Shown one piece after another: positions 6,001 to 53,300 of a stretch of 64,000 bases of DNA; positions within the stretch are counted from its first letter, which is position 1, and the number at the start of each line of letters is the position of its first letter. A program made the translations under genes and the position numbers. The stretch is taken from the NCBI GenBank assembly GCA_026981825.1, contig JALSID010000115.1:4198-68197 (forward strand), written 5' to 3'. This DNA comes from Planctomycetota bacterium. Lineage in GTDB: Bacteria; Planctomycetota; Planctomycetia; JALXBF01. The notes under the pieces are model-generated. The model was not told where the DNA came from, searched no databases, and worked only from the letters and a program-made list of their open reading frames with translations.

Positions 6001-9000
6001 CCTGACGGTTGCGGCTGTAACCCGGTCCGTGCAGCTCTTCGCCGTGCAGGTAGTCGTTGCCCGCCTCGCCGACCAGGATCTCCTGGCGAAGATTGCCGTA
6101 CAGCCAATCGCCGCCGGGGCCACCGTGCAACTCGTCGCCACGCAAGCCCGTTTCCTGGGCGGCGTCGGTTGTCGGAGCGTAAGCGAACAGCGTATCGATC
6201 CCGCCGCCCCCCCAAAGGCGCTGGCCGGCGAGAGTCTCGATGGTGGCCGTCGCCCCGCTGTACTCGGGCAAGTCCTCACCGTCGCTGTTCTTGGCCTCGA
6301 AATTGGACAGCGTGACGCTCTGTGTCTGATAGCCCGAGCCGACAAAGATGCCGATCTTGGTCTTGCCCACGCGACGGGCTTCGAGCGCGAGGTCCAAGTT
6401 CGCCGCGATCAGAGCTGCTTGAATCGCTGCGTTGATGTCGGCCACCAGGTCGTCGATGCTCTGGTTGTCGGTCAACCTCGCACTCTTCCCCACGTCCACG
6501 GACAAACTCGTCGAACCGACCATCACATCGAACTTGAGTGTGCCCGGCGCAAAGTTGGTAGTTGAAGTGGTGATCGCCGCTACGGTCTGACGTACCCCGC
6601 CGTCTCCGAAGAGCAAGTCATCGCCGGCATCGCCGTAGAGCTGATCAATACCGCCGTCGCCACGTAACACATCGTTGTTAGCACCACCGCGCAGAACGTC
6701 GTTTCCGTCCCCCCCTTCGATCCGGTCGTGGCCGATGCCGGCGTCGAGGTAGTCGTGCCCCCCATCGCCGAAGAGCCGGTCGTCATCGCCCCCGCCGAAC
6801 AGCCAATCGCCGTCATTGCCGCCATGGATGGTGTCGGCGCCGTCGGCGGAATCGCCCGGTACCGAGGCGCCGAAGACAAACCTCGGCGTGATCTGCGGCG
6901 GTGTGAATCCGGTCCGAAACCGCGCTTCGGTCGCCATCCAATCGTCCGGTGCCGCGAAGTTCTCCTGCTGCACCGCCGAATGCCGTGCGTCGGTCCAGAA
7001 ATCGGTTTCGGCGAATTCGGCAAAACCGCCCCAGATCACGTCGCGTCCGGCTCCGGCGTCGACATAATCATCGCCTAAGCCGCCCACAATCCAGTCGTCG
7101 CCCCCTAGACCGAAGACCTGGTCATCGCCGTCGCCCGCATCGATCACGTCGGCACCCCCACCGGCGTTAATGAAATCGTCGCCGGTTTGGCCGAGGATCC
7201 AGTCATGGCCCCCGCCAGTGACGATGCGGTCATCCCCTGGGCCACCTTCGACTGTATTCTCTCCGCCCGCGATGCGGATCTCATCGTCCCCCTCCTGCCC
7301 GAAGACTCGATCGTTCCCGAGGTTCAGCCGTATGACGTCGTTGCCGGCGCCCGCATACACCGTATGATCGCCCAGCGAACCGAAGATCCGGTCAGCGTGG
7401 TCCTCGCTGGACGTGCCCCTGGGAATGGGTTCCGTGGGATCGGTCCGGTCGCCGTAGATGGTCTCCACGTCACCGCCGCTGTTTTCGTCCGATAGCCCCA
7501 CACCAGGGAAGACGCCGGCGTAGATTCGATCGGCGCCCCATCCCCCGATAAGCGTGTCACTCCCCGGGCCGCCGGCCAGTTCGTCGCTTCCGGCCCCCCC
7601 GTCGATCTGGTCATCGCCTCTGCCTCCGTCGATCCGGTCGTCGCCCCCGCCGCCGAAGAGCAGATCGCTGAACGCCCCCCCGTCGATCCGGTCGTCCCCG
7701 TCGCCGCCGCGGATGTTATCGCCCCCTCGGCCGCCGAGGAGTTCGTCGTCCCCTGCGCCGCCGTCGATTACATCGTCATCCAGTCCACCATCGACGAAGT
7801 CATTGCCCGCTCCCGCGACGATCACGTCCTTTCCCGTCTGGCCCAGGATCCGGTCGTCACCGTCTTCGCCAAAGACCTGATCGTTGCCCCATCCGCCCTG
7901 GATCTGGTCACCGTCGGCGCCGCCGCGGATCACGTCATCGCCACGGCCACCGTCGATGATGTCGGCTCCGGAACCGCCATCGATCGTATCGTTCCCGCCT
8001 CCGGCGGTGATCATGTCGGCCCCGTCGCCGCCGGAGATCAGATCGGAGGATGGCCCGCCGGCGAGCTGATCGTTGCCCGCGCCCCCATTCAGCGTGGCCG
8101 GGCCGCCCCCAGCAACCAACACGTCGTCGCCCGGCCCCCCCACCAGCTCCACAGGCACGCTCACCCCCTCGTGAATGATGATCTGGTCGTTCCCAGCGCC
8201 GCCGTCCGCATAGATCCGATTGACGCCCGAAAAGGTCTGCCGGAGCCCGAAGGCCTCGACCACCACCTCATTAGGCGTGCTGCCGGGTAGTACGCGAAAC
8301 ACCTCGTCCCCGTCGCTGGTATCGCCATGGCTGCGCGCCACGGCGTTCGGGCCCATGTTCAGCGTCAAAAGGTCGCCGTTTTGGGACGCTAAAACTGGCG
8401 GCTCCACGTCGCAGAACGAGTGAGCCAAGTCGAAAATCGTAATCGAGGCCAACTCCTTGTGCGCATCGATGATGGTTAATTTAAAGAAGCCCAGCTTGAT
8501 TTGGATCTTCACAAAGGCGGCCAGGCTCGCCCGCAAACTTCCCGTCACGTCGAAGACGCACTGCACTCCCTGGCGCAGTCGATGGCCCAGCTCGTCCAGA
8601 TGGACTCTGCCACCGTCACTCGGGTCTGGGTCTACCAGGTCGAACCCCGCGTTGCCGAACAAACCACCGCCGGCACCCGCAAGAACCGTGGCAATCCCCA
8701 GATCCACGCCCAGGGCAGCATAGGCCGCAAAGCTGGCGAAAAAGTCGAGCTCGTTAATGTCGCGACCATCCACCGTATCGCGGATGTAGAAGCCATTGAG
8801 GAGGTTCCCCGCGTCGCCCGTTTCCACGGCCTGCCTTAATCCACGGGTGTCGAATCCAAACCGGAAACTCGCCGCTAATCCTGCCCGCGCATCGAAGTAG
8901 ATCGTCAAGAAGGGGGGAAACACGGGTATCGAGGGAATCGGAATCGACGTCGTTACGTTAAACGTGGGCAGGTTCAGCTTGATCAGATCAATGTCTTGGC

Positions 9001-12000
9001 CCAAGAGCAGCCGAAAAACGGACGTGGGTTTGTCAATGAACGGGAACGTTAAACCGCTCCCGTGCTGACTGGGAATGTTCCCCGCCTCGTCGAAGAACTC
9101 CCTGGCTGCCTCCTGCCCCGCCTTGTTCAGTTCCTCCTGCACCTGCCTCTTCAAATCCTCGTCTCTAATCTCGTTGCCACTAGCGTCCCTGGGCGTGAGT
9201 CCGCTCAGCGTTTCGTTGTTCAGGTCGTCGGTGGAAATCGTGAAACCGCCGATTGGAATGTCGCCAGTCGCGAGGTTTCGGGAAGCGTCCGCCAGCCGCG
9301 AGATGGAATGTAAGGCGCTAACAAATTGCGCCGAGGTCTCAACCGATCGCCGCACGGATTCGTTCGGCGCGAACTGCTTCGCCAGGGTCAGCACCGTCAC
9401 AGGGCTTTTGCTCAGATCCGAAATGATCGGGATCGGCGTCGTTAGGAAATCCACCACGGGCTTGATCGGGGCGAGAACCGAAGCGATCTTCTCAACGACC
9501 GGCCGCCCGAAGTTTGTGATGAGCTGCCCCGGATTGATCCGCACATTCTCGAAGGTCACGGAGGGCGTTCCGAGGAACTGCCCCGTCTTGGCCGCTGTAT
9601 CCACCTGGTCGAAGGTCCAATCGATGCCGAAGTCGGCCTTGATTTCCGGGAAGTTCGCATTAGCGCCAAAGCCAGCGACCAGGTCGAGGTTGACGTCAGC
9701 GTTGCCATCGAGCGTCGCCTTGATGCCAAGCCCTGCGAACTCGGATGTTGTCAGCCGCCCATCACCGCTCGGATCAACGAGGTCGATGGTGAATTCCCCC
9801 GTGAACGCGCTCGGATCGCCCGAATCATCGGACGCATCGATTCGGAGGAACCCCAACCTGCCGGTGGCCTTGAAGTCCGGGATGCGAGCGTCCAGCGTGA
9901 TCGACAGCTCTGGGATCTCGTTACCTTCTTTGTCTTTGTTCGATGTTCGGAAGTAGACACCCTGCGTCTTGCTGATCCCGACGCCCACGGTGAACGTGAA
10001 GCCGAGCTCGGTGGCCACCTTGCCGTCGAGTTCCAGGCCGAGGTTGTCCAAACCGATGTCGAAGCCGATCGGCACATCAAGCAGTGTGGCGTCGCGGCCA
10101 AGTTGCATGACGAACTGGACGTCCTCCGGTCTATTGGTGTCGGGCAGCCTGATGTCGTCCACGGTGATAACGCCGTCGCTGTTCATGTCTTTCAGCCAGC
10201 CCAGGTTGCCCGGGCCGAGGGCGTCGAACAAAGCCCGACGAACGGTGTCCTTGTCCCGCCGCACGTTGCGGGCAGCTAACGCTTCAAACTCGTCTCGGAC
10301 GGCATCGCGGATGTCCGCCAGGAAGCGCGCTGCATCGCGGAGACCTGTGCCGATCAAGGGCAGCTTGACCGCGGCGAATACCCCCTTGTCCAAGCCTGCC
10401 TCCAGAGCACGGAAGAATCCCTCCCAACCGTCACCGATCGCCCCCATGTCGGAGGCCACGTCGCCGATCTGTTCGATGATGCCACTGAAATCGGGCACGT
10501 CGATGGTCGCACGCGACGGGTCGGCAAGATCCACTGTGAGTTGAAAGACGTGGTCCAAGACGCCATCACCGTCGGTATCGCGGCGCGTCCTGGTGATGGG
10601 CGTGTCCTTGTTGGGTCCGAACACCGGCAGCGTTGCCTTCGCCGTTCCTGAGACGACCACATCGAGGATCTGCGGCGTGTTGCCAACGAACTCGTCGAGA
10701 TAGTACCGACGGTCCGCGGGGTCGTTGGCCAGATCGATCGTGAATGTCGCCGGATTCTCTCCGTTAGCGATGGTCACAGAACTGGCGATGTCATCCTTCG
10801 TACCCACCGTCCCATCGGCCCCGCTGTCAGGATGCACAAAGATTCCCAGCGGACCGACGGCCGCGCTGAACTCCACATCGCCGGCGGCCGCCCGAAGCCG
10901 CAGTTCGACGTTCGTCGTGTCCTTGATAAATGGCCGCAGTCGGCGATCCGCAAGGTCGATACCGAAGTCGAGATGTAACGTGGACCCGATGTCCAGTTGT
11001 AAGGGAGTCTCCCCCCGTACGTCGACGAAGCCTTTTACGAAGGGGTCGAAGTTGAGTTGCGCCTCGACACGCTCTTGGCTTTCCAGCGTTAAGTCAATTC
11101 CCAGGGCCGGACCGGTGGTGAGCTCCAACGTTAACTGACTGTCGGTGAGCCCGAAGGCCGACTCGATACGATCTTCGAGTTCCTGGAGCGTGCCGGCTGG
11201 GTTGTCGCGCAGGTTCGATAACAGCTCGATGAACTGCCCGTCAATGCCGACCAGTTGTGGGACCGACCGGTTGAGGATCGGCAGCTTGCGACCAAGCAGG
11301 CGGGTACTGTCGAGGTTCTCCAGGTCGGCTAAGAACCGGTCCGCCACCCCCTGGAGGCCGTCAACGATGGTTTGAAAATCCAGATCCGGCAAAGTGCCCA
11401 GGTTCTCAAACCCGGTGGTTGTGACATGCACCGTCCCCGGGAACTGCCAACTCGCCACCACCTTTGCGTCCTCATCCACCCTGAGGCCACCGATGTTGCC
11501 TGCCACCGAAACCGGCAACACCAGGTTGGCTGAACCGGTAACGTTCACGGAGTTGCCTGAGAGCGTATGGTCGGCAAGCTCGCGCAGCCCGATGCGTCCG
11601 TCTCCATCGCGGTCTTCCAGCGTCAGGCTGGCGCTGAGCCCCCCTTGCAGGGATCCCCCGGTGACGGTGACGCCGAGGCCGAAGTCCTGGGGGCCGAAGC
11701 GGGCCGAGCCATCGATGTCCTCGGCCGTTAGCGTGACCGTCCCCTCCAACAAGGCACTCCGGAAGAACAATCGGTCCGAAAGAGCGCCCACCCGGAGCGG
11801 CGGGCTGGTCAGTTTGGGCTCGCTATCGCCGTCTTCATCGCCACCAACCAGTCCCAGAGCAAACCCGGCTAGTGAACCATTGGTCGCGCTCACGGCAAAC
11901 GTGTGGTCTCCCGTCGTCTTGTCTTCCAGTTCAATGAGCGTGCGATGGATCTCGTTCGAATCGGTCGTTTCGCTCCCCTTGCGATCCTGGAACACGAGCC

Positions 12001-15000
12001 GAGCACTGAACTTGGCATTGCCGTCACGATCGCTCGGAGCAGCCGCGTTCAGGTCCACAATCAGGTCAGACAGGGTGGTCACGTCTTTCGTCGGGTCGCT
12101 CGGATCGGAGCGCCGCTGGAAATCGACGTTGAACGTCGTCCCATCTCGGAGCGTGATCGTCAGGTCGTCTCCATCGGCTATCGGAATACCGCGTCCGTCG
12201 TTCAATTCGCGTAGGAAGGTCCTCTCGGTGACGGCCGGCGGCTTACTCAGGTCTAATGCAACGGTCAACGAGCCGCCCACTTCGGCCTGCGTGGTTAGCG
12301 TGCTGTCGGTCTGGAAGTCAGAGATCTTGCCCAAATCGACGTCCTCTCCGATTGGGATCGCAACACCGAACAGCACCGTGTTGAAGTCAATGGTGTAGGT
12401 GAGCGCCGGATCGTCTCTGGTGCCGTCACCGTTCAGGTCATCGGTGTAGCTCAGGTCGGTTATGACCCCCGGTAGCAGATCAGCCAGTTCCTGGGCGGTG
12501 GCGAAGCTCAAACCGGAGGCCTCCTGACCGGGGTCGAACCCGAGCGGTTCACCTCCGCTGATCGTGAGCGACCTGACCGTGTCGCTGCCGCCGATGAAGA
12601 CGATCCGGCCGCCATGTAATCCCGCCTTCAGAGCATGTGTGTCGATTCCAACCGCATCGAGCGCCGGACCTAGTGACGCGTTCAGATCATTCACCAGGGC
12701 CCGCGCGTCCTCGTTGTCGGCTAGTTGATCAGGGGTAAGCGTGACATTCACGCTGGTCTGGCCGTTGAGTGTCAGCGTCAGGCCCACGCCCTGGCCTTGG
12801 CCTGGGACACCGTTGGCCGGGACCAACCCGCGCGCCACCAAACGCACGCTGGAAATCGGGTCGAGGAGCGTTTCTTTTAGCGCCTGTTGAAAGTCGAGCA
12901 GATCGCCCAGATCACCAGAGTCGGCAAAGGGCAAATCGACGTTGAGCCAACCGCTGGCACGCAGCGTGTCAAGGGCCAGCCCGGCCTGCCCGAACAACCC
13001 CACCACTGTCTGCGCATCCAGGGTGCGGAATGGCTCGAACCGATGGAAGTTCCGCGCCGTGTAGCGAGCTGTCGTCGTGCTGTCAAAATCCGAAGGCTGC
13101 ACGAACACAGGAAGCTGATCGTCGAAGACGTTGGGATCGACCATCTCGAACGTCCCACCGGTGATGCTCGCTTCCCCCATGAATGCGCTGATGTCGAAGC
13201 CCACCTCTAGCGAACCCTTCGTCGCTACCGTTAAGCTCGACACGGGCAGTTCTTGCAATTCGCCCGCCGTGATCCGCGTTGTCTCCGTGTCCGGATTAGC
13301 CACATTCACGTCCACTTGCGCGTTAAACTTGACGCTCGAATCGCCGGTAAGTGGCGTCACGGAGACCTCAAGGAATCCCAAGCGTCCATCAAAACCGACC
13401 GAACTATTGACATTCAAACCGGTACTCAATGACACGTTGTCGAGGAAAAATGCGTCCGCGCCGGTCCGGTTCCCGTCTAGGCCAAAATCGAACTTGAGCG
13501 AAAAACTCGGCGCCACGTCGATCGTTACGTCCCCTACCGGGGCGATACCAAAGTCGAATAGTTGTTGGAAAGGCAACGGGATGCGGACATCTGGAAGGGT
13601 AGCGGACCATGTGACCTTGAATACGTCGTCTTCGAACTTCACGGCCTGGTCGGAGTCGCCCAGAGCGTCGTTGAGCCTGCTGGCCAGTTCCCTGGCGGTC
13701 GCGGGCTGACCCGGTTGCAGACCAGCGAAGTATGTTTGCGCCGAGGCGAGTAGTTTCTGGCGCAACAATTTGGGCAGGTCGACCAGATCGGCGATCGATG
13801 GGTTCAAAACCGAGGTGCTGAACTCTTCTGTTTCGAACAAACCGGTGAGCCATTCAGCGAGCGACGTAAGCCCCTGTAGAATCGCCGACTGATCCTCGGT
13901 GCCGAGTACATCGGGTGCGGGCGCGGTGATACCGTTCAGCTTCTCGACCAGGTCGGCGTCGATCGGACTGGCGGGATCACCGGCAGGCAACCCTTTTGCA
14001 CTGCGAAAGGCTTCGATCGCGTGCTGCGTGTTCGGGCCTAGGATGCCGTCCGGATCGAGAGGCTTCCCGCCAAGGCCCCTATAGCCGAGTTGCCGCAGCC
14101 GCTGCTGGGTCGCGAGGATCGAACGCGGACCCGTCCCTGCCGTGACCGCGCCGGGACCTTGTGCGCTAAAACCCCGACGCACGTCGATGCGCAGCCGCTC
14201 GGTTCTCCTCCGCCCGTTGTGTTCAAATCCGACGGTCACAAAAATTACTCCCTGGAATCCCGCTGCCGCCGGGTCGGCGTCCAGTCGGGCAGTGGGGTTC
14301 CCCGCATCCGGATCGATGGCTTCGGGAACGAAGTAGAAGCGGCCCGTTTCAGCGAACGATTGGCCCTCGATGCGGTCCGAAAGGATGATCTTGCCGAGCG
14401 TCTTCTTCGTACCGCCGGGGAGGACACGCACCACGCGGAACTCACCCGGCCGCCGCGTGCTTTCGACCAGATCGGCCCCCTCAACGCCAAGCAATTGGAA
14501 ATTCTGACGACCAGGGTTGGCCCCTGACGTGTTGACGGCGATCACGTCTCCGGTGCGTCCGCGCGCTCTGGCGGCTAGTTCCAACCGCACATTGTCGATC
14601 GCGATCTCGGAGGTAACCTCGCCGGAGCCGCTGATGACCTCAAACGTCACCGTGTGGACCTGACCGCGCAGCGACTCGGGGATCTCCAGCCGGTACCCCT
14701 GGAAGTCAGCATCCGTGGCGTCCAACCGCAGCCCGCCGCCGTCGATGGCCGCATCGCCTATCCGAACTTGGAGCCTGTCCGCATCGCTCGCCTGCAGGCG
14801 GCGCATCTCGAACCGCACGGCCACTGCATCAGGGGGCACATAGAGCTGGCTGTGGGTGAGCTTGGTGTGGCGGGCACTCAGGACCGCAAATCGATCGGCG
14901 TCGGGCGGCGCCGTAAATCGCGTGGCGTTGCCGGACCCTGTGGAGCGGGCAGGATCAAAACCGACCTGCGCGCCGAATGCACCGGTCCCGTGATCCGACC

Positions 15001-16357
15001 ACCCCGGATAGATCGTCGGGCTCAATCGGTTGGAGAGTTCTCCGATGAGGTTCGGCCCCGTCTGAAAATCGCCGTTCACAATCATCCCCGGATCGAACGC
15101 CGGTTCCCACCCGCCCTGGGTGACGAGTTCCGCCGTGAGGCCCAACGACTGAAGACCCGAACGATTTGGGCTGCCGGTTGAGCGGTCGACGAGCGATTCC
15201 GGCGTGTTCCGATGGTCCTGTTGGCTGAGATCGAGCTGCCCGTTGCCGTTCAGGTCCTCCCCTTCGTCCAGCACCCCGTTGCCGTTCAGATCTTCTGTCG
15301 CGTAGAAGACCGCCGCCGGCCGGGCAATCGGCGAAGTACTGGGATCGCTGTCATCCCGAGTCTGACCCCCCGCAATCCGGCTGAAGGCATAGCCTGTGGA
15401 TGACACGTGATCGGTAACGGTCTTCAGATAAAAATCCTTCCAGACAGCCGAATGGGCGTTTCCGGATACGTTAGAGAGTTGCTCGTTGATCCATACGTTG
15501 TACGCGCCTGGGATCGGACGGCCTTGTGGGGTGTCCTTCGTCTGGTAATAGACGTCAACGAATTGCACATTGCTCCAGACCGCTGCTCCGTAGCCGGGCG
15601 GTTCACCGAGCACCGACTGGCGTTGGTCTCCGTCCACAGGCAGCCCCGGCTCGTCGAAGTCGTGGGGATCGAGATAGGTGACCTGATCCACCGGAACACC
15701 GTAGGCGGCCAGTCTCTCGACGGCTTCGCTGGTCACCGCGGCGCCGGAGCTGTGCCCGATGAAATGCAGTGGGACGTTCGCTGCGCCGGTCGAAGGGTCG
15801 ACCAGACCCAGACCGACGAGCATCGCGAAGAGGGCCTCTCCGGCTGCCTCTGACCAGCCATCGGACAGTTCGTTCGATTCTGGCGCCCAGTCGAACAGGA
15901 GTACCACCTCGCCGGACAGATTGGGTGGATTGCCATCTGGCAGGAGGGATCCGTTGTTTAAACCGTCGTCCTCTCCGCTCAGGTCGGCGTCGAAGAACCC
16001 GGCGTCTCCTTCTTTCCGCACGTCGTAATCGAGCAACCACGCCGTGCCCGCATCGGCGTTGGCTTCATCAGCCCGGTTGCGTATTGCCTGGGCAAGCGGC
16101 ATGAGCGAATCGCCCCCCTCGTCCCTGAACTGATACCCGTGCGTGATCACCGTCGCGCCCGTAACGTCGACTTTGGTAAGCAACCCCCTAACGTCCTGTA
16201 TTGAAAGCGTGGACAGCAACACCCGCTGTTCTAACCGCTCGAGCGCTAGCGTCGTTTTCCGCGCCCGCGGGCGATTAGGCCTTCCCCCCTTCCGCCTCGT
16301 TCCGGCTAGGCCAAGCAATCCCCCTGGTGCCTGTGAATTCGAATGGGGATCGAACAT
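1..16357 (-). CDS. Giant secreted multidomain protein, partial (3' end lies beyond the window start; at least 5,452 aa). Domains: N-terminal LEPR-XLL-type motif, lipase-like alpha/beta hydrolase (GHSSG), very long RTX/hemolysin-type Ca-binding repeat region, LamG/ConA-like domain, FG-GAP/VCBS-like repeats
   Basis: I translated the minus strand by hand, in frame with the ATG at 16355-16357; the nearest in-frame stop upstream is at 16535-16537. The translation gives MFDPHSNSQAPGGLLGLAGTRRKGGRPNRPRARKTTLALERLEQRVLLS, which fits a basic stretch plus LExRxLLS. It continues through HFIGHSSGAAV (lipase GxSxG, around 15743-15763). Dozens of GGxGxDxUx nonapeptides (e.g. GGGGDDRIDGGRGDDQIDGGAGSDELAGG) lie around 8200-4900. 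A LamG-like block (FTIEAWVQV...KWAHIAATFD...LYVDG...EVRFWDRARTAEEI) lies around 3230-2730. DxDGDGxxD FG-GAP-like repeats lie around 1200-300. No frame-0 minus-strand ORF appears in the track. That is expected if this ORF is unbroken and runs off the window, because the track lists only closed ORFs. All plus-strand ORFs in 1-16000 are low-complexity S/P/R-rich antisense artefacts. Confidence 0.8.
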   Translation of the reverse strand, partial: MFDPHSNSQAPGGLLGLAGTRRKGGRPNRPRARKTTLALERLEQRVLLSTLSIQDVRGLLTKVDVTGATVITHGYQFRDEGGDSLMPLAQAIRNRADEANADAGTAWLLDYDVRKEGDAGFFDADLSGEDDGLNNGSLLPDGNPPNLSGEVVLLFDWAPESNELSDGWSEAAGEALFAMLVGLGLVDPSTGAANVPLHFIGHSSGAAVTSEAVERLAAYGVPVDQVTYLDPHDFDEPGLPVDGDQRQSVLGEPPGYGAAVWSNVQFVDVYYQTKDTPQGRPIPGAYNVWINEQLSNVSGNAHSAVWKDFYLKTVTDHVSSTGYAFSRIAGGQTRDDSDPSTSPIARPAAVFYATEDLNGNGVLDEGEDLNGNGQLDLSQQDHRNTPESLVDRSTGSPNRSGLQSLGLTAELVTQGGWEPAFDPGMIVNGDFQTGPNLIGELSNRLSPTIYPGWSDHGTGAFGAQVGFDPARSTGSGNATRFTAPPDADRFAVLSARHTKLTHSQLYVPPDAVAVRFEMRRLQASDADRLQVRIGDAAIDGGGLRLDATDADFQGYRLEIPESLRGQVHTVTFEVISGSGEVTSEIAIDNVRLELAARARGRTGDVIAVNTSGANPGRQNFQLLGVEGADLVESTRRPGEFRVVRVLPGGTKKTLGKIILSDRIEGQSFAETGRFYFVPEAIDPDAGNPTARLDADPAAAGFQGVIFVTVGFEHNGRRRTERLRIDVRRGFSAQGPGAVTAGTGPRSILATQQRLRQLGYRGLGGKPLDPDGILGPNTQHAIEAFRSAKGLPAGDPASPIDADLVEKLNGITAPAPDVLGTEDQSAILQGLTSLAEWLTGLFETEEFSTSVLNPSIADLVDLPKLLRQKLLASAQTYFAGLQPGQPATARELASRLNDALGDSDQAVKFEDDVFKVTWSATLPDVRIPLPFQQLFDFGIAPVGDVTIDVAPSFSLKFDFGLDGNRTGADAFFLDNVSLSTGLNVNSSVGFDGRLGFLEVSVTPLTGDSSVKFNAQVDVNVANPDTETTRITAGELQELPVSSLTVATKGSLEVGFDISAFMGEASITGGTFEMVDPNVFDDQLPVFVQPSDFDSTTTARYTARNFHRFEPFRTLDAQTVVGLFGQAGLALDTLRASGWLNVDLPFADSGDLGDLLDFQQALKETLLDPISSVRLVARGLVPANGVPGQGQGVGLTLTLNGQTSVNVTLTPDQLADNEDARALVNDLNASLGPALDAVGIDTHALKAGLHGGRIVFIGGSDTVRSLTISGGEPLGFDPGQEASGLSFATAQELADLLPGVITDLSYTDDLNGDGTRDDPALTYTIDFNTVLFGVAIPIGEDVDLGKISDFQTDSTLTTQAEVGGSLTVALDLSKPPAVTERTFLRELNDGRGIPIADGDDLTITLRDGTTFNVDFQRRSDPSDPTKDVTTLSDLIVDLNAAAPSDRDGNAKFSARLVFQDRKGSETTDSNEIHRTLIELEDKTTGDHTFAVSATNGSLAGFALGLVGGDEDGDSEPKLTSPPLRVGALSDRLFFRSALLEGTVTLTAEDIDGSARFGPQDFGLGVTVTGGSLQGGLSASLTLEDRDGDGRIGLRELADHTLSGNSVNVTGSANLVLPVSVAGNIGGLRVDEDAKVVASWQFPGTVHVTTTGFENLGTLPDLDFQTIVDGLQGVADRFLADLENLDSTRLLGRKLPILNRSVPQLVGIDGQFIELLSNLRDNPAGTLQELEDRIESAFGLTDSQLTLELTTGPALGIDLTLESQERVEAQLNFDPFVKGFVDVRGETPLQLDIGSTLHLDFGIDLADRRLRPFIKDTTNVELRLRAAAGDVEFSAAVGPLGIFVHPDSGADGTVGTKDDIASSVTIANGENPATFTIDLANDPADRRYYLDEFVGNTPQILDVVVSGTAKATLPVFGPNKDTPITRTRRDTDGDGVLDHVFQLTVDLADPSRATIDVPDFSGIIEQIGDVASDMGAIGDGWEGFFRALEAGLDKGVFAAVKLPLIGTGLRDAARFLADIRDAVRDEFEALAARNVRRDKDTVRRALFDALGPGNLGWLKDMNSDGVITVDDIRLPDTNRPEDVQFVMQLGRDATLLDVPIGFDIGLDNLGLELDGKVATELGFTFTVGVGISKTQGVYFRTSNKDKEGNEIPELSITLDARIPDFKATGRLGFLRIDASDDSGDPSAFTGEFTIDLVDPSGDGRLTTSEFAGLGIKATLDGNADVNLDLVAGFGANANFPEIKADFGIDWTFDQVDTAAKTGQFLGTPSVTFENVRINPGQLITNFGRPVVEKIASVLAPIKPVVDFLTTPIPIISDLSKSPVTVLTLAKQFAPNESVRRSVETSAQFVSALHSISRLADASRNLATGDIPIGGFTISTDDLNNETLSGLTPRDASGNEIRDEDLKRQVQEELNKAGQEAAREFFDEAGNIPSQHGSGLTFPFIDKPTSVFRLLLGQDIDLIKLNLPTFNVTTSIPIPSIPVFPPFLTIYFDARAGLAASFRFGFDTRGLRQAVETGDAGNLLNGFYIRDTVDGRDINELDFFASFAAYAALGVDLGIATVLAGAGGGLFGNAGFDLVDPDPSDGGRVHLDELGHRLRQGVQCVFDVTGSLRASLAAFVKIQIKLGFFKLTIIDAHKELASITIFDLAHSFCDVEPPVLASQNGDLLTLNMGPNAVARSHGDTSDGDEVFRVLPGSTPNEVVVEAFGLRQTFSGVNRIYADGGAGNDQIIIHEGVSVPVELVGGPGDDVLVAGGGPATLNGGAGNDQLAGGPSSDLISGGDGADMITAGGGNDTIDGGSGADIIDGGRGDDVIRGGADGDQIQGGWGNDQVFGEDGDDRILGQTGKDVIVAGAGNDFVDGGLDDDVIDGGAGDDELLGGRGGDNIRGGDGDDRIDGGAFSDLLFGGGGDDRIDGGRGDDQIDGGAGSDELAGGPGSDTLIGGWGADRIYAGVFPGVGLSDENSGGDVETIYGDRTDPTEPIPRGTSSEDHADRIFGSLGDHTVYAGAGNDVIRLNLGNDRVFGQEGDDEIRIAGGENTVEGGPGDDRIVTGGGHDWILGQTGDDFINAGGGADVIDAGDGDDQVFGLGGDDWIVGGLGDDYVDAGAGRDVIWGGFAEFAETDFWTDARHSAVQQENFAAPDDWMATEARFRTGFTPPQITPRFVFGASVPGDSADGADTIHGGNDGDWLFGGGDDDRLFGDGGHDYLDAGIGHDRIEGGDGNDVLRGGANNDVLRGDGGIDQLYGDAGDDLLFGDGGVRQTVAAITTSTTNFAPGTLKFDVMVGSTSLSVDVGKSARLTDNQSIDDLVADINAAIQAALIAANLDLALEARRVGKTKIGIFVGSGYQTQSVTLSNFEAKNSDGEDLPEYSGATATIETLAGQRLWGGGGIDTLFAYAPTTDAAQETGLRGDELHGGPGGDWLYGNLRQEILVGEAGNDYLHGEELHGPGYSRNRQGDTLGAPDRLFGDSGEDQLFGGGGRDELWGGADSDWLEGQDGRDTVYGGGWIDMIVLDARANYTELGDVIDGHFGNASAADVPDDNATDILLINGTNADDTIRLRQSKPGERLYNFRGNDVGAAQGGQLLVEYTTSTLPATAKFEAVWTDAKGEPLVEQFRVAGLGGDDVLEFVAGPDALDISALLDRNAQAEVQDWIGVLDGGPGDDRLVGTGGRDRLDGGPGSDVLFGLAGDDRLWGDSTSSDAVAPDTAQHDVLFAGQGFDDLLGGPGTNELYAWSFHPEGVVAGDGALPQQGGASPQFGVFVKPDGTLTDSNGDLDGDGFLDEDAGLPEEQRRRPYPLEDTGLNRMLGGENNDSLYAGTGLDFMYGRSGDDQLFTRTGQPFEALDSQLAGDEWKQYARSTNRVWYYAGSNLDDVITVDFVTEPGLLSGHHLITRLTDNGGNFTFDAQVRLDFDATDADGRRIWDRRDAVVPFDALQTADPEAREAALDALGFTEPMTNTAAVQTELLQRALPPEDDFLAILIDALDGNDRVEIGPTVTKSVWVDGGRGDDRIEVQPGAPILIDQTDDPIARLRGGDGVAHRNDLPQFAYALDGDAGERTRDNDPLTPIGSDVAVTGLSIDNPDDEDWYRFRLASAPQPGDVLTLDSLSLGDRMRWELREPVHDASGVLAGTRLLIPADDFQRIELDRLGAITAANLGPPAGRLSEDVTFTLRFNDDTASAVAVTLAAASTVNNAKLQDLADDLNGALGKALAGTGFGGAVRFRVEGDRLVLVPLERKMAALTITGAEALGFEKNGQSAAKLAANTEYLIRVTTDRTPTVYQLTFGLVAAQDRTESSGAGTTADLGNLVDLHRVTGLTLHGTSDEDEFRFQLILPKDAGNEDVEDQPLLPSGTDQLRLVQTGGSTPVRIEYLDQWMLAFDGTDDFVSVPHAAELNPGSFTIEAWVQVTGGENRVRGIVESRKSITGSEAGTFGYSLKVRSDNTWEFSVGKGKGQTAWTALGGPRVLLGKWAHIAATFDDATKTMKLYVDGSEVGTATVDSFAPNPDELLFIGKSGNDFFVGNIAEVRFWDRARTAEEIERDLGRRLIGTEPGLVAYWTFDGTGDTVRDQTGRGHHGRLGGGGDTTRPQRVTVAAETAGAGTWATLPLGLAHSGTVRITHAAPGGTSPQPARYELQPVIEGQNFATLDLSAGRSVDVATFIAEPRRDVLLGGEGADVLAGGSGEEWIFGGPGNDVLTGGADRQASDLLFGGEGDDRFQIIPDRLPLLTPPQRSLGSGPKRSFVPTLSDRFDGGPGRDEVIFLGGDRDRLGRPVPDHVAIRYNTTLQRYEFASLVWDVANEQFVAADSPTARAAGFTGPGEFLEHYAFYQPFEIERTVIDVRSGDDVVHADPGYRFPGAEREWGIDPQDRPQGSAIGSLVILGGPGNDLLFGGAESDTIDGGPGVDFIAGGPGSDSITGGPDDDLLAGGRAVTPDPYEMVTRGSERGFNDEPRFASLVPRPGPGDVIEATIHPGDREDWYLIPAPLSSRQFAGSKTALLTPEMISVTFVNEDGSINSAQNDRFNADEFKGKNVFLFPAQVETDEHGRIVSAIPVEQFSGVPNFYLLNVRNINQIDSKSDNDLEPMGAYHIRFGGQVGQVLHVAAGNDSLTVTPQFDLDKPVSVPLGDIDGDGYGDFIVAVREYFGNPAELSAPDPSTSEHPADRLSRPTVASIRFGRDGTEDERLGRRPVQLLLPAPLTAPSIFGSQSFIARPGDYNGDGIDDIVVTVTRGDEATFTTFKDSDGKVLPFSKSGVYVLFGSSDPQHWGGVIDNGIINVLEDRDVQIRGFLGTIMAAPAGDVDGDSIGDLLVGDSAGGDGNGTVHLFSGKKNWNVYFTADVADGDGRGSRDGFVFSTNSPLWTVSDQVPKDDDGVPRPGHSLPHHLQFRAESGVNRSSDSATASLTGIPSDSGVPLELAFSYLLTLDSDDTAQASLGTKVQNVSLTGPDPETGKWRRFRLT

Positions 16358-18061: not shown

Positions 18062-18080
18062 GGCGCCGGCTTCTTCCAAG

Positions 18081-18155
18081 TCGGGGCGCCGGGATTCGAA
18101 CCCGGGACCTCTAGAACCCCATTCTAGCGCGCTAGCCAGGCTGCGCTACGCCCCG
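18081..18155 (-). tRNA. tRNA-Pro (anticodon GGG), 75 nt, no encoded CCA
   Basis: The reverse complement reads CGGGGCG-TA-GCGC-AGCCTGGCTA-GCGC-G-CTAGA-ATGGGGT-TCTAG-AGGTC-CCGGG-TTCGAAT-CCCGG-CGCCCCG-A. It has a 7-bp acceptor stem, D arm, a 5-bp anticodon stem with a 7-nt loop (U33, anticodon GGG, G37), a GGTTCGAATCC T-loop, and discriminator A. Confidence 0.85.
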
Positions 18156-18380
18156 AATCCGCCTTATTCTACAGCCCACCACCGGAACCGGCAAACGCGG
18201 TCGCCGTCTCAGCGGTCGGCCTCGGCTGCCGGAAACAGATGCGCGCGCTGAGCCGACGGGCATCGGTGGCGGTGCCGTCAAGCCACCAGGGCGGCAAGCC
18301 AAATGAAGAAGCAGCTCGCATCCCGCCAAACGCTTACCCGAAACCAAATCGCTCTACCCCCCACTGGCAACCTCCGAGCG

Positions 18381-18485
18381 CGCCGAACTGTCGCGACGAA
18401 GAGCGCATGCGCCTGCTTGTATACCGGTACGGCCCTTCTGGCCCGGTGAACGCGCCGACCTGTCGCAACGGAGAGCGCATGCGCC
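18381..18485. promoter_or_regulatory. Two 33-bp direct repeats (18381-18413 cgccgaactgtcgcgacgaagagcgcatgcgcc; 18453-18485 cgccgacctgtcgcaacggagagcgcatgcgcc), each ending in the 10-bp palindrome GCGCATGCGC. They sit in the divergent intergenic region between tRNA-Pro and the first vWA gene
   Basis: Direct reading: 29/33 identical, 72 bp spacing, palindromic core; about 170-270 bp upstream of the vWA gene start. Confidence 0.5.
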
Positions 18486-18654
18486 GCCGCTGCCACCAGA
18501 AGGGTCACGCGGTGCGGGTCAGGCCGACTATGACGGTGGCCATGTTCTCTCGTATGCTGATATCCAAAACCGATTAGAATGACAGTGGTTGAGGTCGGGC
18601 CCATGGTGGCTCCCGGCTTCGTCGTTGGGCGATTCGGTCCTTCCTGACCAGCGA

Positions 18655-20625
18655 ATGGGAGCAAATATGGAACGGAAGCGTCGGCGTGGGGCCGCAGGCT
18701 ATGGGCTGACCCGGGTCGAGAGGGCTCTGCAGAAGTCAGCACACAGGCGGACCAGAACAGCCGCGCCGGAAGAGATCCGCCACCGCTGGTATCTCTCATC
18801 CGCCCTGGCGAGCTTACTCTTCCATGTCTTGATTACCGTCGTCCTCTTCCTCGTTCCCGGCCTCGTCCAGCATCGCAGTCAGGCGGTGGTCGTGGACACC
18901 CGTTTGACCGACCTGAAGGAGAACCTCCAGTTCACCCAGGTGCTCGATCTGGACACGATCGAGGTAGGCGACACAGCGCGGGCGCTGAGCCCGTTGAGTT
19001 CGGCTGCGCCCTCCGCCATGATCGAAGAACAAGACCCCGCCGATGAGCTGCCCGAAGAAGTGCTCCCCGATCCAGAGTTGCCCGCCGTTGCCAAAATCGA
19101 CCTCCCCCGCTCCGATCAGCTCACCACCTCCGTCAGCGTACAGGGGGCAACCGGAGAATTCGTAGGCGGAGTCGAGGGGGCAGTCGACAGGCTCACGGTC
19201 GAGATCCTCCGTAGCCTCGAGCGAAACAAGACGCTGGTCGTTTGGATCTTCGATTCCACCGAAAGCCTCCGCGACGAGCGAGAAGCGATCGCCAAGCGGT
19301 TCGAACGGGTGTACCGCGAACTGGCAGCGTTCGGCAAAACCGAAGGCGATGAACTGCTCACCGCGGTGGTAAGCTTCGGCAAAAAGCCGCAGGTGCTCAC
19401 GAAGAAACCCCTCACCGACGTCAAGAAACTGCAAGAAACCGTACGCAACATTCCTCTCGACACGTCGGGAGAAGAGTACGTCTTCACCGCAATCCAAACG
19501 GCTGCAGAAGCGTTCGGAGCGTACCGTACCCGCGGCAGGCGTGACCTCATGTTCATCGTGCTCACCGACGAGGTCGGTGACGACGAAGGGCGGGTCGATG
19601 ACGTGTTGCCGATCCTGCAGAAGCTGAAGGTGCGCGTCTATGTCCTGGGGGCCGAAGCTCTGTGGGGTAAACGTACCACCACGATCCCGTATCGGGACGA
19701 GAACGGCCGCGTGCTCGGCTACCCGGAAGTCACGCGTGGACCGGAGTCGGCCATGATCGAAGTTGCCCACCTGCCGATCTGGCACGGTGGCAACCCAGGG
19801 CTACTTCGATCCGGCTTCGGTACGTGGGGGCTGACGCGGCTTTGTCGAGAGACCGGGGGCATCTATTTCATTGTCGACTTCGGCGACATGAACGGCCCCA
19901 GCTTCGATCGGATTGCCCTGCAAGCTCTGGAGCCGGATTATGTCTCAAGGCGCGAGTACACGGCGAGAGCGTCGCGGAGCCCGTTCCGCACCGCCTTGCT
20001 GCAGGTGGCGGCGAGCGTCAAGGTCCGGACCCGCCCCCCGCGTTTGCTCTTCCCGGCGTATGACAAGAACGTGATGAGCGAGGCGATGAAGCAAGCCCAG
20101 GGTGAGGCTGCCATTCTGAAGGCCCAGGTGGACCCGGCCGTGTCGATGCTCGCCAGAGTCGAGAAGCTCCGCGACAAGGAAAAGTCAACCCGCTGGCGTG
20201 CGCACTTCGACCTGATGTTCGGCCGACTGCTGGCCGCCAAGGTACGTGCTTACACCTACAACGCCATGCTGGCCCAGATGCGGGTGGCGCCCAAGGCATT
20301 TTCGAACAAGAAGAACAACGCCTGGCGTCTGGTGCCGGATGAGAACATCCCCGAGGACACGCCTGCCGGTTTCGCGCTGGTCGAGGCCGCCAGGAAAGCT
20401 CGGGAGTACCTGGAGCGATGTGCAACGGAGTATGCCGGCACGCCCTGGGGCTACCTGGCGGAAAAAGAGCTCGAGTACCCGCTCGGTTTCCGCTGGGAAG
20501 AAGCGTACGTCCCGCCGCCACCCCCTCGTAGGCAGGACAACAACAGAGCCAGACCCAGGCCGCGGCCGAATCGGCCCCGCCCACTGCCGGGCCCGCCAGC
20601 TCGGCCAGTACCCAAGAAGATCTAG
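18655..20625 (+). CDS. Membrane-anchored von Willebrand factor A (vWA) domain protein with a Pro/Arg-rich C-terminal tail (paralog 1)
   Basis: ORF 18589..20625. Likely start is ATG 18655 (MGANMERK) or 18667 (MERKRRR): a basic N-terminus is followed by a TM helix (LLFHVLITVVLFLVPGL). The vWA-like core is VVWIFDSTESL...LMFIVLTDEVGDD...VYVLG. The C-terminal tail is PPPPPRRQDNNRARPRPRPNRPRPLPGPPARP. It is about 40% identical to the downstream ORF across the central domain. Confidence 0.7.
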   Translation: MGANMERKRRRGAAGYGLTRVERALQKSAHRRTRTAAPEEIRHRWYLSSALASLLFHVLITVVLFLVPGLVQHRSQAVVVDTRLTDLKENLQFTQVLDLDTIEVGDTARALSPLSSAAPSAMIEEQDPADELPEEVLPDPELPAVAKIDLPRSDQLTTSVSVQGATGEFVGGVEGAVDRLTVEILRSLERNKTLVVWIFDSTESLRDEREAIAKRFERVYRELAAFGKTEGDELLTAVVSFGKKPQVLTKKPLTDVKKLQETVRNIPLDTSGEEYVFTAIQTAAEAFGAYRTRGRRDLMFIVLTDEVGDDEGRVDDVLPILQKLKVRVYVLGAEALWGKRTTTIPYRDENGRVLGYPEVTRGPESAMIEVAHLPIWHGGNPGLLRSGFGTWGLTRLCRETGGIYFIVDFGDMNGPSFDRIALQALEPDYVSRREYTARASRSPFRTALLQVAASVKVRTRPPRLLFPAYDKNVMSEAMKQAQGEAAILKAQVDPAVSMLARVEKLRDKEKSTRWRAHFDLMFGRLLAAKVRAYTYNAMLAQMRVAPKAFSNKKNNAWRLVPDENIPEDTPAGFALVEAARKAREYLERCATEYAGTPWGYLAEKELEYPLGFRWEEAYVPPPPPRRQDNNRARPRPRPNRPRPLPGPPARPVPKKI

Positions 20626-20942
20626 CCTCGCCGGAACTCCAGACGGCGTCGGCAGAGCCTCTGCTCAGTCGAACCGCAGCAGTAGCCGTTTGGCTCCCGG
20701 CCCACTGCTCTTAACGGATCCCGGGCGGTCGGCTGCCTGACGAAAGCCGGTGCTTCGGACGGAGGTACAATCTTTTGCGTACTCGGGAAAGCGGTCGCGA
20801 TACAGCAAACGCCAGTAGCCTATTTCTCGCGCGGGCAAGTCGCTCACTCGGCTCGCGCTGGAAAGCACAGTCGGAACAAACGCACTCATCGCATCGGTGA
20901 GGGGGGTGCATAGGAAACGGGTGGCCTTTTCGGGGCGAGGGT

Positions 20943-22871
20943 ATGTCGCGGCTCGCGAGACCAACAAACGGGCGCCGACAAGAGACCGCTGCGGCGAGAC
21001 CGAAGACCTGTGCCGCTACCGTCCTGATCGCCTATCTGAGGCGCTGGTACCGTACGTCCCCCGCGTGGCTCACCAGTTTCCTTCTCCACGTGGTGGCAGC
21101 TATTCTCCTTGTGCTCGTCCCCTACCGCCACAGGCTTCTGGCCACCCACGTCGTAATCGAAACACGGCTCGACGACTCTGAGCTCACCGTCGAGTTCGCT
21201 CGTCTGCTGGAGCCTGACTACGAACCGGGCGACAGCATGAGCGGTGGTTCGACCCCGGCGACGCCACACGGAACCGACCAGGGGTCCGTTCTGCCTGATA
21301 TCCCAACCACTTCGACTGAAGACCTTCCCCCCGCCCCTCCGATCGCCAAATTGCCGAACATCGGGCTTGGGGCATTACCCCAGGACTCGCAACTGACCAT
21401 GGACGTCTCCGTAAAAGGTGATCCGATCGCCGTGGTCGGTGGAGTAGGAGACGCGATCGATCAGATCACGCGCGAAATCCTCACTCGTCTGAGCAAAGGC
21501 CCGGTGTTGGTGATCTGGATGTTCGACGAATCCCGGAGCATGCAGGACGAACAGCAGGACATCAAGGGGCGATTCCATCGGGTCTATCAGGAACTCGCCG
21601 AGAGACCAGAGACCCGCAACGACGCGTTGCTCACCGCCGTCGTCGCGTTTGGTAAGGACCTGCACTTCGTCCTCGAGAAGCCCACCGCTGACGTGCCACG
21701 GATCCGGGAGGCCATCGACCAGATACCCGTTGATCCCTCTGGCCAGGAATGGCCGTGCAAGTACTTGATCCAGGTGGCCCGTAAGTACGAGCCTTTCGGA
21801 AGACGGGGGCGCCGCCAGCTCATGTTGATCCTCGTCACGGACGAATCCGGTGAGCGGTCTCCGGATGGGCTTACCCCGCTGGACGGTGCGTTCCTTGAAG
21901 ATGCGATCGCTGCGGCGGTGAAGGCCAGGATGGCGGTATACGTGATCGGCCGTGAGGCGGTTTTTGGGTATCCCTTCGCTCAGGTGCCGTACCGGGCGAA
22001 CGGCCGGAGCTACCACCTGCGCGTCACACGAGGGCCCGAAGCACCCGACGTGGAATGCCTCCAAACCATCGGGCTGCGGCCTACCCGGCCGTTCCTGCTG
22101 TCCGGCTTCGGCCCCTGGGAACTCGTCCGGCTCGTGCGAGAAACCGGTGGCATCTACTTCCTCAGTCCTGCGGATGAACCAGGCCGACCCGTAACTTATG
22201 CTTTCGACCCCCTGGTGATGCGAAACTACTTGCCCTACTACGGCCCCCGGACCCTGTATGTCAGCACTCGTGACCGCAGCAAACTGCGCGCAGCCATGTA
22301 CGACGTTATCAAGCGGACCGCTCGCGTGGGTGTGCCGCTGGTATTCCCTTCAGCTCCTGCCGCGTTCACCCAACAGGCTGCCCGAGCGATCCAGCAGTCT
22401 CGCCAACAACGAGCAGTACTTGCTGAGGCCTATCGGGTTCTCCAGCAGGTAGCCCCCCTGTACGACAGCGAGGACTCGCCCCGTTGGAGGGCGGCGTTCG
22501 ATCTGATGGCCGCTGAGCTGGCCGCGTTCCAGGTCCGGCTCTATTCGTACGAATCGATGCTTGCCAAGCTCATGAAGGACCCTCCGAAGCCGTCGCGCCA
22601 GCCCCCTCCGGGCCACGTCCTGCGCTGGGAAGTGTTGCTCTGCCCGCACACGAAGCATGACTGGATTGGTGATGACGAGGGGGCTGTGGAGGCGCGCAAG
22701 CGAGCGATCGAACTGCTGCAGCAGGTGATCGACACGCACCCCCGTACCCCTTGGGCTCGACTGGCACGTATCCACCTCGACGTAGGACTAAGCGTCCGCC
22801 TTGTCGAGGTCTTCGTCGGTGTCCCTCCTCCCGGTGTCCCTCGCCCCACCCCCCGCCCGCCTTCCCTTTGA
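20943..22871 (+). CDS. Membrane-anchored vWA domain protein with Pro-rich C-terminal tail (paralog 2)
   Basis: Same architecture: a basic N-terminus plus TM (FLLHVVAAILLVLVP), then LVIWMFDESRSMQDEQQDIKGRFHRVYQELAE...LMLILVTDESGE...AVYVIG, ending in the tail VGVPPPGVPRPTPRPPSL. Strings such as LLTAVVAFGK, VTRGPEAP and LVRETGGIYF are collinear with paralog 1. Confidence 0.7.
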   Translation: MSRLARPTNGRRQETAAARPKTCAATVLIAYLRRWYRTSPAWLTSFLLHVVAAILLVLVPYRHRLLATHVVIETRLDDSELTVEFARLLEPDYEPGDSMSGGSTPATPHGTDQGSVLPDIPTTSTEDLPPAPPIAKLPNIGLGALPQDSQLTMDVSVKGDPIAVVGGVGDAIDQITREILTRLSKGPVLVIWMFDESRSMQDEQQDIKGRFHRVYQELAERPETRNDALLTAVVAFGKDLHFVLEKPTADVPRIREAIDQIPVDPSGQEWPCKYLIQVARKYEPFGRRGRRQLMLILVTDESGERSPDGLTPLDGAFLEDAIAAAVKARMAVYVIGREAVFGYPFAQVPYRANGRSYHLRVTRGPEAPDVECLQTIGLRPTRPFLLSGFGPWELVRLVRETGGIYFLSPADEPGRPVTYAFDPLVMRNYLPYYGPRTLYVSTRDRSKLRAAMYDVIKRTARVGVPLVFPSAPAAFTQQAARAIQQSRQQRAVLAEAYRVLQQVAPLYDSEDSPRWRAAFDLMAAELAAFQVRLYSYESMLAKLMKDPPKPSRQPPPGHVLRWEVLLCPHTKHDWIGDDEGAVEARKRAIELLQQVIDTHPRTPWARLARIHLDVGLSVRLVEVFVGVPPPGVPRPTPRPPSL

Positions 22872-52230: not shown

Positions 52231-53286
52231 ATGGAGACAGGACGACCACGCCGGTTGCATGTGCGGCACGAGGGAAACCGCGAGCACCTTGAGTACGCAC
52301 GGCAGGTGCTCGAAACCGAAGCCGCCGCTCTGCGAACCGTCCGGGATCGGCTGGACGAATCGTTCGCAGCGGCGGTGAATCTTTTGCTCACTTGCAAGGG
52401 ATCGGTCATTGTGACCGGCATGGGGAAAGCCGGCATTGTGGGCCAGAAGCTAGCCGCGACCCTTGCTTCCACCGGTACACGGGCGCATCCGTTGCATCCG
52501 GCCGAAGCGGTGCACGGTGACCTGGGCCGGATCGGTGCCGAGGACATCGTGCTTGCCCTGTCGTACAGTGGCGAAACCGAGGAGGTGGTGCGTCTTGTGG
52601 ATCCTGTGCGGCAGATCGGGGCGAAGCTGATCGCGATCACGGGCCGGGGCCAGTCCACCCTGGCGTGCGCCGCCGACGTAGCGATCGTGCTCGGCCCGCT
52701 CAACGAAGCCTGCCCCCTTGGGCTGGCGCCGAGCACATCCACCACCGCGATGATGGCTGTAGGCGATGCCCTTGCCTTCGCCGTTAGCAAGGCGCGGCGG
52801 TTTGAACCAGAACAGTTCGCCGCGTTTCACCCTGCGGGCAGCCTCGGGAAACTATCCCAGTCGGTTCGAAACCTGATGCGGGTTGGAACTGAGGTGCGGT
52901 TGGCCCACACGGGACGAACCGTGCGCGAGGCGCTGATCGAAGCCCACCGGCCCGGCCGCCGTACCGGCGCAATGCTGATTGTCGACGAACGCGGCGTGCT
53001 GCAGGGCATCTTCACCGATGGCGACCTGGTTCGGCTGCTCGGACGAACCGACCTGGACGATCCGCTTGAGCTTCCGATCGAGCACGTGATGACCAGGAAT
53101 CCGGCGACGATCGGGGAATCGGCCACCGTGCGCGAGGCGGTGGAACGGCTGTCACGGGGGAAGTTCAGCCAGTTGCCCGTTCTCGATGAACACGGCCGCC
53201 CGATAGGCATTCTTGACATCACCGACGTGATCACGCTCATCCCAGACCTGGACCGTGAGCAAGACTCGACGGCCAAAGCTGCCTGA
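52231..53286 (+). CDS. kdsD: Arabinose-5-phosphate isomerase (SIS domain plus tandem CBS domains), KdsD/KpsF/GutQ family
   Basis: SIS motif VIVTGMGKAGIVGQKLAATLASTGT and C-terminal CBS pair; followed 15 nt later by kdsC. Confidence 0.85.
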   Translation: METGRPRRLHVRHEGNREHLEYARQVLETEAAALRTVRDRLDESFAAAVNLLLTCKGSVIVTGMGKAGIVGQKLAATLASTGTRAHPLHPAEAVHGDLGRIGAEDIVLALSYSGETEEVVRLVDPVRQIGAKLIAITGRGQSTLACAADVAIVLGPLNEACPLGLAPSTSTTAMMAVGDALAFAVSKARRFEPEQFAAFHPAGSLGKLSQSVRNLMRVGTEVRLAHTGRTVREALIEAHRPGRRTGAMLIVDERGVLQGIFTDGDLVRLLGRTDLDDPLELPIEHVMTRNPATIGESATVREAVERLSRGKFSQLPVLDEHGRPIGILDITDVITLIPDLDREQDSTAKAA

Positions 53287-53300
53287 ACGGGGACCGACTC

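Follow-up and report, generated by a model that had tools for sequence, protein, structure and literature searches.

We investigated two adjacent genes, here called A and B, in a 64-kb stretch of contig JALSID010000115.1 from a member of the Planctomycetota (hereafter, the window; G+C ~63%). Both genes encode proteins in which a single membrane anchor precedes a vWA (von Willebrand factor A) domain, and both belong to a family annotated only as 'vWA domain-containing protein'. An earlier note on this DNA was right to leave their function open. That note had also described two consecutive paralogs of shared architecture with ~40% identity; both ORFs lie at its coordinates, on the plus strand. 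The paralogy is clear, with an alignment over essentially the full length of both proteins (BLASTP, E 1e-88), and the identity in this alignment is 35%. The features of the two genes are listed below; residues of A are counted throughout from the ATG at 18667. TM stands for transmembrane, MIDAS for metal ion-dependent adhesion site and AF2 for AlphaFold2.

18667..20625, +: gene A (A-type), 652 aa, or 656 aa from 18655 (open reading frame (ORF), public gene call)
18769-18864, +: A, predicted TM helix, ~residues 35-66 (AF2 model)
18811..18846, +: A, S49-x3-H53-x6-L60 within the single TM helix (family alignment)
18886..18900, +: A, VVVDT, candidate motor-box strand (AF2 strand, conserved alignment block)
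From VVVDT to ~19131, +: A, acidic spacer, predicted to be disordered (AF2 model, alignment)
19132..19875, +: A, vWA domain with MIDAS (Pfam, alignment)
19252-19269, +: A, first MIDAS loop, D196-S-T198-E-S200 (alignment)
19909..20505, +: A, C-terminal domain of helices (TPR-like hairpins) and a three-stranded sheet
20506..20622, +: A, low-complexity tail rich in Pro and Arg; its end, VPKKI-COOH, varies the family's P-K-L-COOH
20943..22871, +: gene B (B-type), 642 aa (ORF, identical to P0119)
21075..21110, +: B, S45-x3-H49-x6-L56 in the TM helix (alignment)
21150-21164, +: B, VVIET strand (alignment)
21525..21542, +: B, first MIDAS loop, D195-E-S197-R-S199-M, canonical (alignment)
21732-21749, +: B, MIDAS loop D264-P-S266-G-Q-E269 (alignment)
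21837-21851, +: B, MIDAS loop T299-D300-E301 (alignment)
22809..22868, +: B, short tail rich in Pro, with PPSL-COOH at its end

The reading frame of A opens with a TTG at 18589, contains in-frame ATGs at 18655 and 18667, and ends at 20625. The second ATG is the start in the public gene call (P0001, identical, 652 aa), and the first, the start used in the note, gives the 656-aa variant P0339. The protein matches Pfam VWA with 31.4 bits. The description of the pair as membrane-anchored vWA proteins is supported.

Distribution and age of the gene pair

Homologs were surveyed using one genome per species, which yielded at least 388 loci, 80 of them fetched. The family comprises 1098 clusters at 50% identity (E <= 1e-30; full HMMER pass over 1.84 billion representatives), and all named matches are from Planctomycetota. 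Within it, A and B fall into separate subfamilies that extend across the phylum: 116 of the 117 other matches to A score better against A than against B, and the residues following the MIDAS carry fixed signatures, S-L-x3-R in the A-type and S-M-K-D-D-Q in the B-type. The closest B ortholog, P0120, is 51% identical to B and sits after the A ortholog in a relative's locus, L004; identities then drop to 40-44% and, in Pirellulaceae and Anammoximicrobium, to 33-38%.

The two subfamilies are often found side by side. Searches of all loci with A and B by tblastn showed that, of 70 informative loci (those with enough downstream sequence), 38 carry an A-type gene and, after it on the same strand, one of the B-type; the reverse order did not occur. 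The 38 belong to Isosphaeraceae, Tundrisphaera, Singulisphaera, Gimesia, Schlesneria, Planctomicrobium and further metagenome-assembled genomes (MAGs). Pirellulales-type loci (Rhodopirellula, Lacipirellula, Pirellulaceae) carry the A-type alone, and B-types there are likewise solitary and unlinked. When the ORFs of 82 loci were clustered, the paralog was the sole conserved neighbor; antisense shadows aside, no other family occurred in more than 22 loci.

The earlier note had taken the tandem for a local duplication, and the adjacency and like architecture of the two genes would fit a recent event that left one copy redundant or decaying. This is extremely improbable, given that identity is just 35%, that each copy has its own orthologs across orders and its own subfamily signature, that the tandem order is kept in 38 loci, and that both ORFs are intact and retain every invariant residue; the phylogenetic distribution of the A-type and B-type refutes it. 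The duplication is instead ancient, and the A-type and B-type are old subfamilies maintained as an ordered pair. Because this pair is kept in several orders, its members probably act together.

In L001, a long-read MAG, the B-type gene (12074-14211) is split into overlapping frames, 12074-12781 and 12376-14211, called as proteins of 235 and 477 aa, probably owing to an indel in the assembly and not to biology. In L006, an IS605 OrfB fragment (12011-12502) follows the A-type gene in the place of the B-type, suggesting loss or relocation of the partner through a mobile element.

The MIDAS metal site

The first MIDAS loop of the family has the consensus F-D-x-S-x-S-[LM]. Across 322 full-length members collected, DxSxS is present in 301 and Dx[ST]xS in 312. 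B contains DESRS, an exact DxSxS, and A contains DSTES, that is, DxTxS, in which Thr conservatively replaces the middle Ser, a substitution common to only A and its four closest relatives. The second loop, D-x-[ST]-G-x-E, places its [ST] 71 residues past the first Asp, with an invariant Glu three residues after it, and the third, an invariant T-D-E-x-G, lies 105 residues past the first Asp; in A, these are D265-T-S267-G-E-E270 and T300-D301-E302. The spacings agree with those of the integrin I domain MIDAS, 69 and 102 residues (to the Thr and the Asp, respectively). In the alignment, the MIDAS residues are intact, exact in B and conservatively substituted in A. An altered MIDAS, as the note had read from DSTESL and DESRSM, is not what we find: the latter contains the canonical motif and was misread, and the former differs by a Ser-to-Thr change.

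Domain architecture

We modeled A with AF2 from an 84-sequence alignment (predicted local distance difference test (pLDDT) 83.6; predicted template modeling score (pTM) 0.76). In the model, a disordered, basic N-terminus leads into one long TM helix (~35-66), followed by a short strand (~74-76) and predicted disorder up to ~155. The vWA domain (~156-404) harbors a beta insertion (~329-386) with invariant GPE....E and SGFG motifs, and is followed by a helical domain (~415-613) and a disordered Pro/Arg tail. B has the same architecture. The end of the protein is conserved across the family, with [KRN][LIMFYV] as the final residues in 291 of the 322 members and PKL in 157 of the 322. The last residues of A are modeled with higher confidence than the remainder of the tail, which suggests that they dock on something.

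The segment preceding the TM helix, predicted to be cytoplasmic, is short (median 35 aa) and unconserved, and the positive-inside bias is clear in both A and B. Such a basic N-terminal tail might relay ligand binding by the vWA domain across the membrane, making A and B a sensor or signaling pair that is, for example, controlled by Ser/Thr kinases, as with archaeal ArnA/ArnB. We consider this quite unlikely, as the segment is short and unconserved, the longer N-terminal extensions of some members hold no recognizable domain, and the one kinase gene in the window, in a phylum where kinases are very abundant, is missing from the syntenic locus L004.

The extensions just mentioned occur in members of 820-1046 aa (P0251, P0250, P0237, P0130 and others), where 150-400 residues stand ahead of the TM helix. 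Pfam found no additional domain in ten members with an extension of this length, and the extensions may be wrong start calls or a cytoplasmic module of an unrecognized type.

Resemblance of the anchor to TolA and TonB

The most informative feature, absent from the earlier note, is a TonB/TolA-type motif in the TM helix. Ser and His stand four residues apart in all 83 aligned sequences, 75 of 84 have a Leu seven residues beyond the His, and S-x3-H lies within a hydrophobic stretch in 298 of the 322 members. In the TonB and TolA proteins, the SHLS motif (S-x3-H-x6-L-x3-S) is the motor-binding element through which they bind ExbB and TolQ, respectively (PMC12204202). The S-x3-H-x6-L arrangement puts A and B alongside the vWA periplasmic force transducers, a proposed class of inner-membrane-tethered proteins compared with A and B at the end of this text. 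The register is the same as that of E. coli TonB (S16, H20 and L27) and TolA (S18, H22 and L29).

Profile comparison with hhalign set the Ser and His of the family in register with TolA S18/H22 and TonB S16/H20, and the strand after the TM helix against TolA 'AVMVDS' and TonB 'ISVTMV', with a weak P of 0.02-0.03. In A, that strand is VVVDT, which AF2 places seven residues past the helix (pLDDT ~50) and which falls in a conserved block of alternating hydrophobic residues. The spacer beyond it is 84-113 aa long (median 94; 83 sequences), consists of 17% Asp+Glu and 8% Pro, is unconserved in sequence and is predicted to be disordered (pLDDT < 50). A and B thus resemble TolA and TonB in motif and plan, which falls short of demonstrated homology.

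Genomic context and the search for partners

We searched for stator genes by tblastn with E. coli queries, in ORF scans and in Pfam gene lists. Neither the 64-kb window nor the ~8-10 kb around each of 86 related loci yielded a gene like tolQ/exbB or tolR/exbD, and neither MotA_ExbB nor ExbD appeared in the Pfam gene lists or ORF scans of the window and its relatives. The synteny behind the proposal of the published class is thus lacking here. Because tonB commonly lies apart from exbBD, this absence is weak evidence.

Other searches for relatives and partners gave no further lead. A profile search of PDB sequences returned nothing significant, and a homology search with the family alignment as the query returned family members already known and no motor-linked relatives. 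Scanning A and B with NCBIfam and PADLOC produced no usable hit and hence no link to a defense system. The genes downstream of the pair that were considered as partners (a convergent set encoding a 452-aa protein, a 628-aa beta-propeller/cytochrome c and a DUF4177 protein) were not counted as such because they are syntenic in close relatives only.

Membrane-anchored vWA proteins could also act in the manner of BatA/BatB or the vWA-MoxR systems, where a MoxR AAA+ ATPase, together with a DUF58 partner, would remodel the MIDAS domain, as happens in aerotolerance (Bat) operons. Neither the window nor the gene lists of seven related loci annotated with Pfam contain a MoxR/AAA, DUF58 or Bat partner, and neither MoxR, DUF58 nor BatC-E is a conserved neighbor among the 82 clustered loci; the lone bpMoxR/AAA_5 hits near the window belong to a sigma-54 activator ~27 kb away. 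Moreover, the Pfam scan finds no BatA_N, and the match to BatB is no better than those to dozens of unrelated vWA domains. With neither the adjacency nor BatA_N present, this explanation is largely refuted and we regard it as very unlikely, in agreement with the earlier note, which had excluded a canonical BatA-D or vWA-MoxR system.

A proposed model of a motor-coupled vWA pair

We propose, with moderate confidence, that A and B, a conserved and heterologous pair, are anchored vWA-TPR proteins of a TolA/TonB-like kind and probably draw their energy from stators encoded elsewhere. Both would cross the inner membrane once and follow the plan of TolA and TonB. From the N-terminus, each would consist of a short basic cytoplasmic segment, a TM helix presenting Ser-x3-His-x6-Leu on one face, a candidate motor-box strand, an acidic spacer of ~90 residues constrained in length but not in sequence, a periplasmic head that joins a vWA domain with a complete MIDAS to a family-specific TPR-like helical domain, and a flexible low-complexity tail with the conserved P-K-L carboxy-terminus. 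Most likely, a proton-driven 5:2 motor of the TolQR/ExbBD type would be encoded at another place in the genome; the TM helix would dock on its rim and motor action would pull the spacer, while the head would grip a periplasmic or outer-membrane partner with its MIDAS-bound cation, its TPR-like surface, its C-terminal peptide or some combination of these. A and B would probably work together, whether they form a heteromer or serve as the two arms of a single machine. The architecture, the motifs and their conservation, the conserved pairing and the lack of Bat/MoxR partners are observed; the periplasmic topology, the docking on a motor, the transduction of force and the identity of the partner are what we infer.

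Several observations weigh against this model. Apart from the missing stator genes and the missing tolQ/tolR synteny, the likeness to the TolA/TonB N-termini is a short motif with hhalign P of just 0.02-0.03, and BLASTP of the A and B N-termini against E. coli TolA and TonB produced no alignment. The fourth SHLS position, a Ser, is not conserved in the family; the motor-box strand is modeled with low confidence; and the spacer is acidic, not proline-rich. The positive-inside bias, by a 20-residue count, is seen in just 55 of 83 family members. Finally, the vWA force transducer class itself, proposed in 2025, rests on computation for all of its members.

The main alternative is that A and B form a passive tether or scaffold in the periplasm, in which an anchored vWA-TPR protein binds a periplasmic, cell-wall or outer-membrane ligand via its MIDAS with no motor involved, and in which the conserved TM-helix Ser and His mediate helix packing in A-B or homo-oligomers, or contact another membrane protein. 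We see this as a possibility to be taken seriously, if a doubtful one. The absence of motor genes nearby, the intact MIDAS, the presence of a TPR-like domain suited to protein binding, a conserved pair that fits a heteromer, and the weak statistics of the short TolA/TonB motif are all in its favor. Against it, the exact i, i+4, i+11 register, together with the predicted post-helix strand and the length-constrained spacer of ~90-100 aa, reproduces the domain I-II plan of TolA and TonB, and a near-invariant His in a TM helix is unusual for simple packing.

A bolder version of the motor-coupled model would make A and B the planctomycete counterpart of TolA. Planctomycetes had no pal and no clear tol-pal locus in a 2025 survey (PMC12204202). 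In such a phylum, the pair could be a heteromeric trans-envelope tether driven by the proton motive force through stators encoded elsewhere, with the MIDAS-vWA/TPR head and the P-K-L-COOH peptide in place of the TolA C-terminal domain, gripping an outer-membrane or cell-wall partner for tethering or constriction. We think this rather unlikely.

If the motor-coupled model is correct, the ~1100 clusters at 50% identity would represent a phylum-wide set of motor-coupled envelope proteins, often occurring as an ordered A/B pair, whose working end is a metal-dependent adhesion domain and not a TonB or TolA domain. They would be candidates for delivering energy to the outer envelope in a phylum with unusual division and envelope biology. 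If it is wrong, what remains is still a well-defined conserved family.

Upstream repeats and surroundings of the pair

Between gene A and the tRNA-Pro(GGG) gene just upstream of it (18080-18155, minus strand) lie two direct repeats, each with the palindrome GCGCATGCGC, as follows:

18376-18413, +: 38-nt direct repeat, first copy, with GCGCATGCGC
18448-18485, +: 38-nt direct repeat, second copy, 89% identical to the first, 72 nt start to start

The repeats are 180-290 nt upstream of A and inside a called 112-aa ORF (18239-18577) that has no Pfam hit. The earlier note had pointed to upstream repeats and had proposed looking for them beside the pair in related genomes: the repeats exist, but no copy was found upstream of the A ortholog in L004, and on this ground we rejected a conserved regulatory element. 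They are probably lineage-specific and not part of the conserved system.

Synteny with L004 extends downstream of A through B, the 452-aa protein, the 628-aa beta-propeller/di-haem cytochrome c, DUF4177, an FAD oxidoreductase and glucose-6-phosphate dehydrogenase (G6PD), and breaks exactly upstream of A, at the tRNA. Between the DUF4177 and FAD oxidoreductase genes, the window has a Ser/Thr protein kinase gene (27055-28797, +), encoding a C-terminal TM segment and helical region, that is absent from this place in L004.

Farther away, positions 1..16180 on the minus strand are part of a giant gene that starts at 16180, runs past the window start and encodes 7912 aa in the source contig; the 5000 residues scanned contain 24 RTX calcium-binding stretches, Laminin_G_3 and PG_binding_1. 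Two proteins of ~1400 aa (33954-38204, +, and 57821-62023, -) combine DUF7133, HEAT repeats and cytochrome c, one with an additional ThuA domain and the other with 3keto-disac_hyd; they are large planctomycete-type haem proteins. The genes at 52231-56896 (+) encode a KdsD-like SIS+CBS protein, a KdsC-like HAD phosphatase and a 1001-aa protein with an LptA/LptD_N domain, and look like a cluster for lipopolysaccharide synthesis and transport with an unusually long Lpt-domain protein.

Comparison with known systems

TolA and TonB of E. coli share with A and B the same three-part logic: a domain I TM helix that carries S-x3-H-x6-L, a motor-box strand (a candidate in A and B) and, across the periplasm, a long spacer. 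Unlike them, A and B lack TolA_C and TonB_C, carrying a head of vWA plus a TPR-like domain, and do not conserve the fourth Ser of SHLS; their spacer is acidic where those of TolA and TonB are Pro-rich or helical. They also have no tolQR/exbBD or tolB/pal neighbors, and the sequence similarity is not statistically significant.

BatA and BatB of the Bacteroides/Leptospira aerotolerance (Bat) operon, and vWA-MoxR proteins, likewise combine an N-terminal anchor with a MIDAS vWA domain, and Bat operons include a TPR partner, BatC. A and B differ in having no MoxR ATPase, DUF58, BatC, BatD or BatE neighbors, no BatA_N and another C-terminal domain.

The TPH-vWA proteins associated with TolQ-like pentamers, the second family in PMC12204202, resemble A and B as heterologous pairs of membrane-tethered vWA proteins. 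They possess a TolR-like trans-pore helix with a conserved Asp, have no SHLS and co-occur tightly with tolQ (PMC12204202). A and B have the Ser and His instead, and since the TM columns of the alignment hold no conserved Asp and there is no tolQ neighbor, we rejected this identity for them.

The closest counterparts are the SHLS-type 'vWA force transducers' ('Origin and Evolution of Bacterial Periplasmic Force Transducers', Mol Biol Evol 2025; PMC12204202). Members of this class are tethered to the inner membrane and combine a TM helix bearing SHLS with a motor box, a domain II that is ~100 residues long and a vWA head; they are reported in Proteobacteria, Planctomycetes, Verrucomicrobia, Bacteroidetes and Rhodothermaeota and described as of unknown function (PMC12204202). 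In the prototype locus, from Tichowtungia aerotolerans, two transducers lie side by side with a co-occurring TPR gene, and in the Planctomycetes-Verrucomicrobia-Chlamydiae (PVC) group there is often synteny with a tolQ-like, two tolR-like and a TPR gene (PMC12204202). A and B match the class in the S/H/L TM helix, the disordered domain II of ~100 aa, the vWA head, the adjoining of two heterologous transducers, the association with TPR and, as a candidate, the strand after the helix, a likeness of architecture. They differ from it in three respects: no tolQ/tolR-like genes occur in the regions searched around the pair and its relatives; the TPR-like module is fused C-terminally to the vWA domain, whereas in the prototype it is a separate gene; and the proteins end in a low-complexity tail with the conserved P-K-L-COOH. 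As proteins of this kind have already been proposed in the literature, A and B add a variant to a class described only recently and do not make up a category of their own.

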